DNA of 64,000 nt from positions 30,948 to 94,947 of the IMG/VR virus record IMGVR_UViG_3300030406_003049. One strand, given 5' to 3'. Origin of the DNA: a virus. The position numbers were made by a program, and so were the translations under genes. A model generated the notes under the pieces. It saw only the letters and a program-made list of their open reading frames with translations. It did no database searches and was not told the origin of the DNA. Below, in pieces: positions 27,475 to 30,427 of this stretch. Numbering within the stretch: position 1 is the stretch's first letter; every line of letters starts with the position of its first letter.

Positions 27475-27563
27475 GTATATATCGTGGGTTCTCAAAGTAA
27501 ACCATATGGTTGTTTCACTATTACTTTTGTTGTCGTAGACTAGTAGAAACAACCTTAAAAAAA
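27475..27563 (-). repeat. Cassette junction repeat R1 (T-tract, bulged hairpin, ACCATATGGT, TATA)
   Basis: GTATATA 27475; palindrome 27501-27510; GGTTGTTTC...GAAACAACC 27508-27554; TTAAAAAAA. Confidence 0.85.
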
Positions 27564-27572
27564 GGGCGAAGA

Positions 27573-27652
27573 CACCCGCTAAGATTGTGTTTTTTCCTAT
27601 CTCATAAGAAGTGCTTTTCCCTGCACTATATGAGTTTCCGTCTTAGCGGGTG
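27573..27652 (-). ncRNA. Long 3'-UTR stem-loop of paralog B transcript
   Basis: CACCCGCTAAGA/TCTTAGCGGGTG enclosing CTCATA/TATGAG and AGTGC/GCACT. Confidence 0.5.
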
Positions 27653-27701
27653 CTTGCGTGAGTTTGGCGCAACAATGGGTTGTTTTGTGGCTCTAACGGG
27701 T

Positions 27702-28160
27702 TTATTCGGTAGCCTCCGTTATGGCTACGGGAAGTGAACCGTCCCAAGTTTTATTGTTGTAGTGTTGTCGTAGTTTTCCGGCAGTCATGTTAGCCATCAT
27801 TGTCGCATATTCGTCAGCGTCAGCGAATAGACCGCCACCGGACTTACCATGCTTGAAGATAACCGAACTAACCGAGCCGTGATTGTAAAAGTTAGTTGAT
27901 GCTTCTACAATTTCTGCTTTGATAGCGTTGATTGATGCTTGCACATTCTCCGGTAGAGTAGAGCGTGAAGGTAGTAAGTCGTCAAGGCTCATAGCCTTAA
28001 CCAATGCTCTAATACTAGCCCAAAATTGGTCTGCTGATTTTTCATCAGTAGCCTCAAGTCCGGCCTTGATTGTGTTCTCAAGTGCCGCATTCTTGATTTT
28101 CTGTGCTTTCATGTTTGCTTGTAATCCTGTCATTCTGCTTAATGTTCTTTCTAAATCCAT
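27702..28160 (-). CDS. Early-region paralog family member B
   Basis: QFWASIRAL, STLPENVQ, KSGGGLF, WDG. Confidence 0.75.
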   Translation of the reverse strand: MDLERTLSRMTGLQANMKAQKIKNAALENTIKAGLEATDEKSADQFWASIRALVKAMSLDDLLPSRSTLPENVQASINAIKAEIVEASTNFYNHGSVSSVIFKHGKSGGGLFADADEYATMMANMTAGKLRQHYNNKTWDGSLPVAITEATE

Positions 28161-28225
28161 ATTTTTTCATCTCCTGTGTTTTACCACTACTCCAACCCAT
28201 TGAAGCAATAATAAGTGGGTTCATA

Positions 28226-28321
28226 GTATATATTGGGGTTCAACAAAAGCAACACCATATGGTTGCATCAATAGTTCTTTTTGAATTAAGCATAGCGTTA
28301 TTAGATGCAACCTTAAAAAAA
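28226..28321 (-). repeat. Cassette junction repeat R2
   Basis: Palindrome 28254-28263; GGTTGCATC...GATGCAACC 28261-28312. Confidence 0.85.
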
Positions 28322-28324
28322 GGG

Positions 28325-28360
28325 AAAAACTCCCCAAATCCTAAGAAATGGGGAGTTTTT
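28325..28360 (-). terminator. Cassette terminator hairpin
   Basis: AAAAACTCCCCA-N12-TGGGGAGTTTTT, then a T-tract on the minus strand. Confidence 0.6.
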
Positions 28361-28377
28361 TTGACCGAGTGTGATGG

Positions 28378-28749
28378 TTAGAAGTAGTCCATGTATGAGG
28401 CAATATACTTTGGCTTTCCGTCCCACGCTTCACCGTTTACATACCATTGAAAATCCTTTTGATGGATATTAACTCCATTAAATCCGTTCAATCTTTCTTT
28501 TGTGGTGTTAGTTGGCCAACCTGCCGAAGTAATCCACAATTTCTTGAAATAATATCTATCACCAAAAGAACTAGGAACTGTATGTTTTGGATATACACAT
28601 TCGTTGTATGCTATAACATTCCCATGTAATAACAATTCAATTTTTTCTGGTTTTTCAGTTGGCCCACATACTCTAACTTGAGTATTACCTTTTTTGAATT
28701 TCTTTCCCTTTTCAAATGCTCTTAATGCTTCATAAGTTATCTTTCGCAT
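28378..28749 (-). CDS. Conserved phage early protein (leaderless)
   Basis: LHGNVIA...AGWPTNTTKERLN...QKDFQWYV motif; ATG about 20 nt from the TATA box. Confidence 0.7.
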   Translation of the reverse strand: MRKITYEALRAFEKGKKFKKGNTQVRVCGPTEKPEKIELLLHGNVIAYNECVYPKHTVPSSFGDRYYFKKLWITSAGWPTNTTKERLNGFNGVNIHQKDFQWYVNGEAWDGKPKYIASYMDYF

Positions 28750-28768
28750 ATTACTATAATGTTAATTA

Positions 28769-28859
28769 GTATATAGTCGGGTTTCTCAAAAAGATACACC
28801 ATATGGTTGCTTAACTAATCTTTGGTGGCTTTAGCCTAGTAAAAGCAACCTTAAAAAAA
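28769..28859 (-). repeat. Cassette junction repeat R3
   Basis: Palindrome 28798-28807; GGTTGCTT...AAGCAACC 28805-28850. Confidence 0.85.
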
Positions 28860-29140
28860 TGAGAAACTCCGGCTACTCGTTCAAATCCAGTGAATGCGTG
28901 ATGCTTACAGAAAATAGACGAGGGAATACGAGTATAACTAGTATTCTCGCAGTATCAATCTATATGTATCTCCGACCGACTTACATTTACAACTTGACTT
29001 TCGCCTTCGTTTCTCAATGGTGTTATGGCCACTAATAACCATAGGAATAGGACTAGGGAGCATAACGATTTTAACTCTTAGTTTTCTATTTTTATTTCAA
29101 TTTCAAAAATGAGTATCGCTATGCTCCCGTTGAATGGGAC
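28860..29140 (-). ncRNA. Structured ~280-nt non-coding RNA downstream of paralog C
   Basis: No ORF; stems TGAGAAAC/GTTTCTCA, ATGGT..ACCAT, GGGAGCATA/TATGCTCCC; ends at the R3 T-tract. Confidence 0.5.
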
Positions 29141-29173
29141 TGGCGCAACATGGGGATATTGCATTAGTTAGGC

Positions 29174-29668
29174 TTATTCGCTATCCTCCTTAACAGGTAG
29201 CGTAAGACCAGTGATGTTATCATCGGTCAATTCACCGTTCCAAAGTTTATTCTTGTATGAGTCAGTTAGAAGTCTTCTAACTCTCTTACCAAAGTAGTCT
29301 GCTAGTTCTTGAATATCAGCGAACTTTTGACCCGATGTATTACGCATAGGCATAATAGTATCAATCATCAATTCCGGCTCACCAATACCCACAAAAACAT
29401 TTACTACCCGATTCACTACAGAATCCACAACGGCTTGAACTTGTGTAGGTAATGATGGTTGAGTGCCTTTGCGGATAGGGGAGTTTGGGAGTGTTTGACA
29501 CAAAGACCTAATACTCGCCCAAAATTGCTCATATTGTTTTTCAGTTTGACCTTCAACTTGTGCTGATGTTATCATGCCTCTTAGAACTATGTCCAAAGAA
29601 CCAGCATCGTTCACATCTAGCCAAGTTATAATGCTATTTGTTTTTTCTACTAATTTACTATATTCCAT
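29174..29668 (-). CDS. Early-region paralog family member C
   Basis: QFWASIRSL, PSLPTQVQ, TSGQKFAD, WNG; same RBS block as paralog B places the start at 29668. Confidence 0.75.
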   Translation of the reverse strand: MEYSKLVEKTNSIITWLDVNDAGSLDIVLRGMITSAQVEGQTEKQYEQFWASIRSLCQTLPNSPIRKGTQPSLPTQVQAVVDSVVNRVVNVFVGIGEPELMIDTIMPMRNTSGQKFADIQELADYFGKRVRRLLTDSYKNKLWNGELTDDNITGLTLPVKEDSE

Positions 29669-29737
29669 ATTTTTCATCTCCTTGATTGTATGCTAACCAT
29701 ACAATATCCCCATGAAGCAATAATAAGTGGGTCTATT

Positions 29738-29827
29738 CTATATGAAACGGGTATTTCAAAGTAAACCATATGGTTGTGTCAGTCATTCTTTTTGATTGCT
29801 TCGCTACTAGACACAACCCTAAAAAAA
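29738..29827 (-). repeat. Cassette junction repeat R4
   Basis: Palindrome 29765-29774; GGTTGTGTC...GACACAACC 29772-29818. Confidence 0.85.
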
Positions 29828-29884
29828 GGGAAAAAACCGACTACCCCTAAAGATAGCCGGTTTTTTTTAACCGAGTGTGATTAT

Positions 29885-30073
29885 TTATCCTAAACATTCA
29901 TAATCATTCATAATACACGCCCTAAGTTTTTCCCCCTCAAGGTGTGTTAGTCGCTTTTGGTGTAAATATTGCTCAAACTTTTCAAGAGCATATCTTTCTA
30001 ATTGTTCACGGCTCATTGATTTGATTAATCTTATTGTATATGGGCTTACATAGTGTAGTTTCAACATATTCAT
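29885..30073 (-). CDS. Hypothetical protein
   Basis: 62 aa; ATGA-coupled to the Ocr-like gene. Confidence 0.55.
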   Translation of the reverse strand: MNMLKLHYVSPYTIRLIKSMSREQLERYALEKFEQYLHQKRLTHLEGEKLRACIMNDYECLG

Positions 30074-30339
30074 TCCTCCTCATCTGCTTCATTCCAAGCC
30101 TCATAAAATCGTCCTAAAAACGCCTCAAAAATATGACCCTGCATTATTTCTCCAACTTGAAGACCTGTATGTTGGGGTTCAATTTGAATGTTTAACGGTG
30201 TTCCTATTACATCGTGATATGTTGTATATATTTCACCGAAATATACAGGGAGTAAACTCTCTACATATTCATGTATTCCGTCTTCATCATCATATTGCTT
30301 TTTGTATTCTTTTACTTCTTCTGCCCAATCTATTGACAT
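30070..30339 (-). CDS. Ocr (T7 gp0.3)-like acidic DNA mimic
   Basis: Leaderless start MSIDW; DDEDGIHEYVESLLPVYFGEI and VGEIMQGHIFEAF resemble Ocr [22 protein letters not shown] and VIRILQARIYEQL; acidic tail. Confidence 0.6.
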   Translation of the reverse strand: MSIDWAEEVKEYKKQYDDEDGIHEYVESLLPVYFGEIYTTYHDVIGTPLNIQIEPQHTGLQVGEIMQGHIFEAFLGRFYEAWNEADEEE

Positions 30340-30358
30340 ATTATTATAATATGAATTG

Positions 30359-30427
30359 GTATATAATCGGGTTATACAAAGCAACACCATATGGTAATAC
30401 AATCTAGTCTGTTATACAACCATATGG
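30359..30427 (-). repeat. Terminal junction R5 (two ACCATATGG copies, GTTATACAA direct repeat, TATA)
   Basis: ACCATATGGT 30386-30395, ACCATATGG 30419-30427, GTTATACAA at 30371 and 30411. Confidence 0.75.

Follow-up and report, generated by a model that had tools for sequence, protein, structure and literature searches.

The subject of this analysis is an array of small gene cassettes on the minus strand of a 64,000-nucleotide (nt) stretch of viral DNA (positions 30,948 to 94,947 of the IMG/VR record IMGVR_UViG_3300030406_003049; hereafter the window, whose coordinates are used unless the genome is named). Between 27473 and 30427 it contains five near-identical junctions (R1 to R5), and among related viruses we found such junctions to be the points at which cassettes are gained, lost, reordered and inverted. 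On the minus strand R1 to R4 read as a T7 tract, an inverted repeat of 46-52 nt, the sequence ACCATATGGT, CTTTG, CCC, TATA(T/G)A and the next gene, the end of the 3' arm being at the same time the first three bases of ACCATATGGT. R5 has two copies of the 8-bp palindromic core CCATATGG lying 33 bp apart (30387-30394 and 30420-30427) and lacks a hairpin of the R1-R4 type. The 9-bp stem of R1, R2 and R4 is followed by one unpaired T (an A on the plus strand) and then by 3-4 further pairs; R3 shows a T.T mismatch at stem position 9 in place of the bulge. A U-rich stretch (AUAUGGUUUACUUUG) is located 3' of each hairpin in the window. An earlier model-made reading of this DNA, the original prediction, had described the same architecture and arm sequences, including the hairpin-less R5, and we could confirm them on the sequence. 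The features are given here in the direction of transcription.

30420-30427, no strand assigned: first array core CCATATGG, with the conserved boundary of the array (A-run, T-run, ..CAAAG) as its outer flank
30357-30394, minus strand: promoter half of R5, with core at 30387-30394, CTTTG, CCC and TATA box at 30357-30365; ATG at 30339
29885-30339, minus strand: cassette C5, open reading frames (ORFs) of 89 and 62 amino acids (aa), no family match; its homologue is last in the array of the relative L112
29821-29827, minus strand: T7 tract closing C5, an archaeal terminator signal, preceded by a G+C hairpin with A and T runs at 29831-29868
29772-29818, minus strand: R4 hairpin, 9 bp GGTTGTGTC/GACACAACC, bulged T, AGT/ACT; the 3' arm finishes in the CC of the core
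29734-29773, minus strand: R4 core (29766-29773) and promoter half, CTTTG, CCC, TATA box at 29734-29742
29174-29677, minus strand: cassette C4 gene, 167 aa, family 1 paralogue; AlphaFold model all-helical with no known fold
28855-29051, minus strand: 200-bp module without ORF, fused behind C4; a separate cassette in relatives
28853-28859 and 28805-28850, minus strand: R3 T7 tract and hairpin, 8 bp GGTTGCTT/AAGCAACC, then ACTA/TAGT
28767-28806, minus strand: R3 core (28799-28806) and promoter half, TATA box at 28767-28775; ATG at 28749
28378-28749, minus strand: cassette C3 gene, 123 aa, Kyano_Gp96 / phrog_554; at another rank in the relatives L112 and L113
28315-28321 and 28261-28312, minus strand: R2 T7 tract and hairpin, GGTTGCATC/GATGCAACC, bulged T, AATA/TATT
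28224-28262, minus strand: R2 core (28255-28262) and promoter half, TATA box at 28224-28232
27702-28160, minus strand: cassette C2 gene, 152 aa, family 1 paralogue
27557-27563 and 27508-27554, minus strand: R1 T7 tract and hairpin, GGTTGTTTC/GAAACAACC, bulged T, ACTA/TAGT
27473-27509, minus strand: R1 core (27502-27509) and promoter half, TATA box at 27473-27481
26691-27440, minus strand: cassette C1 gene, 249 aa, no family match
26456-26476, plus strand: inverted, coreless partial promoter half TGGTTTACTTTGGAAACCCAC just past the C1 terminator, 90% complementary to 27484-27504; it may be an inversion relic or a former array boundary

The junction signal is concentrated in the array. In the whole 94,947-bp genome CCATATGG occurs six times where about 1.0 copy is expected, and all six copies lie within 2.9 kb (27502-30427). 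With at most one mismatch ACCATATGGT is found seven times in the window compared to 1.52 times in shuffled sequences, a number that 0 of 100 shuffles attained. The promoter motif has five genome-wide occurrences, all of them at the genes of these junctions, and the DNA folds of R1 to R4 are more stable than those of shuffled sequences (z-scores -2.3 to -3.1). In R3 and R5 the ATG is located exactly 26 nt past the first T of the TATA box, and because of this spacing we read both mRNAs as leaderless.

The genome is a complete linear virus record with a CheckV completeness of 100%. It encodes structural proteins (terminase, portal, protease and capsid proteins) together with GroEL, an ATP-dependent ligase, RFC, PolB, a UvrD-like helicase, a ThiF-type E1 protein and a TFIIB-like protein. 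This gene set, and the size of about 95 kb of this genome and its IMG/VR relatives, agree with the magroviruses, viruses of marine group II archaea (PMC5434244). As in magroviruses we found a tailed-virus genome of 90-100 kb with PolB, RFC, an ATP-dependent ligase, a chaperonin and an archaeal-type replication module, and judging from this gene content the genome is of the magrovirus type, with marine group II archaea as the host that gene set and literature suggest. A search of the phage collection gave no nucleotide matches and no close relative among cultured phages; the terminase is merely 25% identical to those of Bacteroides phages. Since the virus is of this archaeal type (GroEL, RFC, PolB, a TFB-like gene, leaderless mRNAs), we accept the TATA elements as promoters. 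Bacterial sigma-70 promoters were considered and ruled out by the TFB-like and RFC genes and by the fixed 26-nt spacing from TATA to ATG. The suggestion that the cassettes are autonomous units with archaeal TATA promoters is therefore supported, each of them having a promoter of its own. The TFIIB-like protein (16227-17078, minus strand) shows a zinc ribbon and a helix-turn-helix, its match to transcription initiation factor IIB being weak; it could steer the host RNA polymerase toward later viral promoters.

To gather relatives, IMG/VR was scanned for the pattern and then searched with the neighbouring helicase as query; this yielded dozens of contigs, and 43 related arrays from IMG/VR with 4-13 sites each were compared. 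All relatives with a helicase at least 55% identical and with enough flanking sequence carry 4-13 CCATATGG sites, spaced 200-1,000 bp apart, in an array 2-8 kb upstream of the helicase gene. None of the relatives with a helicase of at most 39% identity has a CCATATGG array, and when gene content was compared between the array-less clade and the array-bearing viruses the helicase was the sole common gene. Solitary CCATATGG sites outside arrays fall in coding sequence and were put down to chance. With the gene to the right of the window array (412 aa) as bait, IMG/VR returned no relatives, and Rfam recognized tRNAs alone, in two relatives. A search of 185,579 species genomes with the composite motif returned 30 scattered matches, none of them in Poseidoniales. 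A 14.8-kb contig (L213) in a metagenome-assembled genome of the flavobacterium Altibacter has three junction elements about 400 bp apart (3287-4176) and is probably a mis-binned magrovirus fragment.

Comparison of these arrays revealed extensive rearrangement. With flanks of 88-93% identity, the relatives L138 and L139 are distinguished by several insertions and deletions, and two adjacent cassettes have changed places between them; the first cassette of L135 is the fifth of L138. The arrays of L138, L139, L135 and L136 are related by such insertions, deletions and permutations, with homology blocks that open 1 nt before a core and close 8-29 nt past the next one. In the window the order of cassettes is C5, C4, C3, C2, C1; the homologues run C3, C4, C5 in L112 and C3, C4, C2, X, C1 in L113, two viruses whose helicases are 88% identical to that of the window at the protein level (about 85% at the nucleotide level). 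Here the homology blocks open 1-5 nt ahead of the cores. For pairs with one flank in common and the other different, every clean case shows identity ending between about -2 and +9 relative to the core. In 16 pairs of moderate closeness the high-scoring segment pairs had 101 internal ends, and 39 of these were located at most 30 nt from a core, compared to 12.8 expected. Orientation varies as well: L138 carries a family 1 gene on the opposite strand between two cores, and in L118/L166 and L120/L126 homologous cassettes are oppositely oriented with their ends at cores. The cassette contents form a large pool that differs among genomes, with the 152/167-aa family 1 paralogues present in nearly every array. 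The junction is an exchange point of units, which are inserted, deleted, permuted and inverted among relatives with the switch points in the palindrome. The swapping of gene content at the junctions that had been proposed as a test is thus borne out, and cassette order is not invariant, as ranks differ and units are present or absent.

The hairpin moves with the cassette that bears both of its arms and the promoter half moves with the gene it drives. For this reason we define the cassette as ATGGT..CTTTG..ACC(C)..TATA, gene, terminator, GGT..CAAAG..ACCAT, a unit whose ends are inverted repeats able to fold. The ORF-less module at 28855-29051 is a separate core-bounded cassette in L112 (5385-5973) and in L113 (7195-7641), and it is inverted in L132; between L112 and L132 it is 89.6% identical, compared to 68% for their helicases (nucleotide). 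High-depth partial RNA contigs touch 29017-29052 within this module, which may be a small RNA gene. Among the assembled contigs no rearranged joints were seen. One DNA run (X10) has loose contig ends near cores (30377, 30413 and 30445, a single contig each), which is compatible with cassette variants in the population.

In relatives the junction has a two-fold symmetry, GGT-x-CAAAG-x'-ACC, ATAT, GGT-y-CTTTG-y'-ACC. Over 276 distinct elements CAAAG is present upstream in 79% and CTTTG downstream in 70%, with A at -1 in 86% and T at +8 in 96%. The core is exact in 157 of 157 elements flanked by both motifs, and a degenerate core was not found. Cores also mark both array boundaries, where a promoter is absent; the boundary flank (A-run, T-run, ..CAAAG) occurs at the first site, and there alone, in 33 of 40 related arrays.

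On either side of ATAT, the bases that separate GGT from ACC vary among copies and are complementary within each copy, as in GGTTTGGTGTC/GACACCAAACC, GGTATTATTTA/TAAATAATACC and GGTTGTGAGTAAT/ATTACTCACAACC from relatives. Core-anchored stems of at least seven contiguous pairs are formed by 14% of the elements compared to 1% of chimeric controls, in which arms were paired with flanks of other elements. In an alignment of 15 sequences (A3) 96.3% of the cells are paired, with a covariation score of 0.334 versus 0.086 after shuffling; the covariance model built from it gave 179 matches on both strands in 37 sources, and in the genome of the window it recognized R1 to R4 alone. In a larger alignment of 137 distinct sequences (A4) 94.4% of the cells are paired versus 77.8% when shuffled, and double-sided changes number 138 versus 40.5 +/- 4.9, a value as high being reached in 0 of 500 shuffles. 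As this alignment was fitted to the covariance model, we compared its score (0.158) with slid controls that carry an equal bias, and these did not exceed 0.024. Orthologous hairpins behind one cassette compensate in the same way (GGTTGTTTTT/AAAAACAACC versus GGTTGCTTTT/AAAAGCAACC). L112, the closest relative, has eight stems of 9-13 bp, each different; L113, as distant as L112, has stems of 5 bp only. The long stems of the window are an extended form of a half-element that is found throughout the family, and the view that the hairpins are kept in structure and not in sequence is supported across the virus clade.

The fixed bulged A, which the original prediction had described for all four hairpins, did not hold up as a general trait. 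Among 44 distinct long stems from the relatives and the window only R1, R2 and R4 of the window have it, and none of the 41 others does. A further copy, with the shape of the R4 hairpin, was found on the contig L002 of a close relative, where AGT/ACT of the second stem has been replaced by CGTA/TACG in a compensatory way. The bulge is a local trait of this genome and one near relative, not a family signature, and because of this confinement a signal like the extrahelical bases of integron attC sites is unsupported.

The conserved positions are two-fold symmetric and the core centre is located about 52 bp upstream of the inferred transcription start, just upstream of the BRE (TFB recognition element) and TATA position. 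Both would suit a regulatory site, in which CAAAG-ACCATATGGT-CTTTG serves as operator or upstream activating site of one regulator (an Aca-like repressor or an activator) and shuffling is a by-product. There are precedents for such sites: anti-defence genes of other archaeal viruses have common early regulatory sequences, some of them with repressor inverted repeats (Bhoobalan-Chitty et al. 2024, PMC11065993), and the intergenic repeats of the halovirus HF2 contain promoters (Russ et al. 2021, PMC8707807). As in the former study, an identical promoter-plus-flank motif, sometimes with inverted repeats, precedes clustered small single genes, five in our case. However, the motifs of that study come from Sulfolobales and are centred on BRE/TATA, and no palindromic junction, covarying hairpins or cassette permutation were reported there. 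The anti-defence function that the original prediction supposed for the cassette genes would follow by analogy with that study. With the HF2 repeats our junctions share the promoters, the intergenic location, the tailed archaeal virus and the absence from the rest of the genome; unlike them they have hairpins, a palindromic core and shuffling, whereas the HF2 repeats hold their positions among relatives. An operator would moreover leave the copy-specific yet complementary arms unexplained. Operators are usually degenerate but the core never varies, and the half-element is also present at cassette 3' ends and array boundaries, from which nothing is transcribed outward. We consider a purely regulatory site unlikely.

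Do the inverted repeats act as DNA or as RNA? It might be possible that they are transcribed by read-through and insulate the cassettes as back-up terminators, as protection of 3' ends or as sites of processing. In the window each hairpin has the upstream gene before it and the U-rich stretch after it, and the stem-loops of the PeSL (promoter-early stem-loop) cassettes of T4-type phages are terminators. In addition, all seven non-Watson-Crick stem positions (7/7) are G.T on the sense strand and none is A.C, which hints at folding of one strand and would also fit RNA, the positions being few and the copies perhaps related. However, the hairpins are placed after the T7 tract, the usual archaeal terminator, and after a separate G+C hairpin. 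G.U pairs make up only about 9 of 855 paired cells (~1%), and for the long stems the folding energy is equal on sense and antisense strands. An asymmetry seen for short stems was discarded as an artefact of the CAAAG/CTTTG loops. In relatives long stems also occur between core and TATA box of inverted cassettes, an untranscribed place upstream of the transcription start. The location between a terminator and the next promoter, from which a role as DNA had been deduced, thus holds in the window and not throughout the relatives. The scarcity of G.U pairs, the strand symmetry and the stems upstream of TATA boxes point to inverted repeats that would act as DNA rather than RNA, and we regard the reading as RNA hairpins as very unlikely.

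Metatranscriptome contigs (X16 and X19, one study) cover 27647-28206 and 29191-29711, two cassette genes, with 5' ends at or near TATA+26; hairpins and cores are covered by DNA contigs and by no RNA contig. We counted these contigs neither way because they are assembled, come from a single study and are unable to define transcript ends. In the family 1 genes (27647-28206 and 29174-29716) pairing is possible between the untranslated stretches at the 5' and 3' ends, as between CAATGGGTT and AACCCATTG.

What could bring about the exchange? In Pfam searches of the complete genome, each with a positive control, we found no tyrosine recombinase (PF00589), no serine recombinase (PF00239), no Y1 transposase (PF01797) and no Hjc. 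The earlier remark that no recombinase is visible in the window therefore extends to the whole genome, tyrosine recombinases and Y1 HUH transposases included. The genome does encode an ERCC4 plus helix-hairpin-helix nuclease (genome 24133-24879, minus strand), whose Hef/XPF-type domain matches are under the NCBIfam whole-protein cut-offs, and a PD-(D/E)XK Cas4-like nuclease (genome 26676-27596, minus strand), as well as an AAA_24 (Sak4-like) ATPase, a UvrD-like helicase and a ligase. Both nucleases sit upstream of the window in the replication arm, and they are candidate structure-specific nucleases for the junctions.

The closest known parallel is provided by the PeSL cassettes, which occupy hyperplastic regions of T4-type phages (Arbiol et al. 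2010, PMC2839356; Comeau et al. 2014, PMC4122927). There, promoter-stem-loop composites flank ORFans and recombine without a dedicated recombinase, general recombination of the virus having been proposed, and excised mini-circles arise by exchange between neighbouring motifs (PMC2839356, PMC4122927). In our array, too, a composite of stem-loop and early-promoter-type motif is repeated at the borders of small ORFans (five junctions in the window, about 270 in relatives). Between close relatives, units have been inserted, deleted and replaced, the break points falling in the motif, and only general viral recombination genes are present, a dedicated recombinase being absent. There are also differences. 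PeSL promoters are of the sigma-70 type, whereas here an archaeal virus has TATA-type leaderless promoters. The junctions have an invariant 8-bp palindromic core within a two-fold symmetric element. The stems are A+T-rich, unit-specific, covarying and preceded by a separate oligo-T terminator, unlike the G/C-rich terminator stems of PeSL. Finally, units are also inverted, and all are collected in one array of 5-13. The array works like PeSL but is not a member of that group.

We favour general recombination focused on the short structured junction, which would make the array a PeSL-like mobile regulatory cassette system in an archaeal virus. This is the most likely explanation, to which we give about an even chance, and it is preferred because no recombinase is visible and a full recombination toolkit is present. 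On this reading the array is the hypervariable accessory-gene region of a magrovirus. Each unit starts with an archaeal promoter within the half-element ATGG-T..CTTTG..ACC(C)..TATA, transcription presumably beginning about 26 nt past the TATA start. It ends with an oligo-T terminator and the second half-element (GGT..CAAAG-like..ACC-AT), here lengthened to a unit-specific 9+4-bp hairpin, and adjacent units meet at the invariant palindrome CCATATGG. The viral XPF/Hef-like and Cas4-like nucleases, the Sak4-like ATPase, the UvrD-like helicase and the ligase would be the agents working on the conserved junction. The inverted repeats might mark the junction or cause stalling there as a DNA hairpin or cruciform, or they might be part of a symmetric protein-binding site. 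Since a promoter and a terminator are part of every unit, the units could be expressed in whatever order or orientation they stand.

Several observations weigh against general recombination of this kind. Unrelated junctions have only about 10 bp in common, a short stretch for homologous recombination of the ordinary kind. In about 270 copies, from viruses with helicases that differ by about 40%, the 8-bp core never changes; this exceeds the needs of a promoter or a substrate of homologous recombination and looks like a recognition or cleavage site. Cores are found at both array boundaries without a promoter. The G.T positions on the sense strand, mentioned above, hint at folding of one strand and would fit RNA as well, and formation of the hairpins in vivo is a prediction from the sequence. 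Furthermore, since many of the viral proteins have no recognisable fold, an unrecognised recombinase is possible.

Such an enzyme, of viral or host origin, would be part of a dedicated structure-reading recombination or transposition system that cuts and rejoins within CCAT/ATGG. The cassettes would then be mobile units with foldable terminal inverted repeats (ATGGT..CTTTG.. / ..CAAAG..ACCAT), and the system would be an archaeal-virus counterpart of attC recombination or of a shufflon. This could account for the invariant core with its zero degenerate copies, for the restriction of switch points to the core and for cassettes in both orientations, as a symmetric core predicts. Promoterless cores bound the arrays, and the boundary flank is kept in 33 of 40 like a primary insertion site. 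Stems beside the crossover vary in sequence and keep their structure, as in attC, and the 200-bp module is far more similar between two viruses than their helicases are. However, the complete genome lacks the tyrosine and serine recombinases, the Y1 HUH transposase and Hjc, two conserved proteins beside the array gave no nuclease or recombinase fold, and the composite site was not found in the Poseidoniales of the species collection. We regard a dedicated enzyme as a real possibility, though less likely than general recombination.

The array resembles integrons in several respects: it consists of exchangeable gene units that start at a conserved boundary site, and the recombination point is at the base of an imperfect hairpin of variable sequence and kept structure. 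Unlike integrons, the genome has no IntI or other tyrosine recombinase, the units occur in both orientations, and each unit has its own TATA promoter motif, whereas integron cassettes are promoterless and depend on the common promoter Pc. The arms, GGT(T)...(A)ACC, have a polarity opposite to that of attC (RYYYAAC...GTTRRRY), and conserved extrahelical bases are absent, which also speaks against a dedicated enzyme of the attC type. IS200/IS605 and REP/RAYT elements differ in that they have a Y1 HUH transposase, which works on subterminal hairpins and for which PF01797 gave no match here. The analogies to attC sites and to HUH-transposase hairpins drawn in the original prediction therefore fail on the defining features. 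Shufflons and serine-invertase systems use a dedicated recombinase (the tyrosine recombinase Rci or a serine invertase) on short inverted crossover repeats and produce inversions only, while these units are also gained, lost and permuted in a virus without PF00589 or PF00239 matches.

The proteins of the array and its surroundings offer few clues, as no informative family or fold was found for the cassette proteins. Family 1 (152, 167 and 156 aa) has an all-helical AlphaFold model with a predicted local distance difference test (pLDDT) score of 88.7, which had no match in the PDB and resembled unnamed viral proteins only. Its third paralogue, of 156 aa, is located outside the array at 25340-25810. 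The C3 protein is a member of Kyano_Gp96 / phrog_554, whose function is unknown and whose other members come from T4-like cyanophages; this accessory gene is common to bacterial and archaeal marine viruses. A 446-aa protein (22238-23575, minus strand) overlaps the end of the helicase gene. Among 56 related loci, 49 conserve it; the Cys/His-rich motif near its N-terminus (CLCGH ... VGSDH) is invariant, and it contains a helix about 105 residues long. Its confident model gave no family or fold match, the long coiled coil alone being matched and the N-terminal Cys/His-rich domain not having been searched singly.

Two further observations concern the genome as a whole and the neighbourhood of the array. 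GATATC is absent from the whole genome and CTATAG is present in 4 copies, compared to about 32 expected for each; CATATG, with 26 copies versus 32, is not depleted. This deficit looks like avoidance of particular restriction sites. The ORF-poor region at 25810-26690, adjoining the cassette array, contains short repeats of the CGACA/TTGTCG type (26021-26086 and 26161-26190), a near-pure A+T block (26190-26260) and several inverted repeats, and it looks like a replication origin.

The junction signal is not described in the papers searched, which include those on magrovirus genomics, on the HF2 intergenic repeats and on regulatory motifs of archaeal-virus anti-defence genes. Our analysis adds the long-stem, bulged variant of the half-element, the finding that the bulge is local, and an enzyme inventory of the complete genome. 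In the surface ocean magroviruses rank with the most abundant viruses, and to our knowledge neither they nor their hosts can be cultured. The junction signal gives a direct listing of accessory genes in metagenomes, which are probably genes for host takeover or anti-defence. It also supplies compact archaeal promoter-terminator parts and an example from nature of how an archaeal virus shuffles genes as modules. A dedicated enzyme, if one is at work, would represent a new recombinase that has a defined, symmetric target of 8 bp, and an integron-like gene-capture platform would have been invented independently in archaeal viruses. If there is no such enzyme, short structured junctions would suffice for integron-like plasticity, and the PeSL idea would be extended to viruses of another domain of life.

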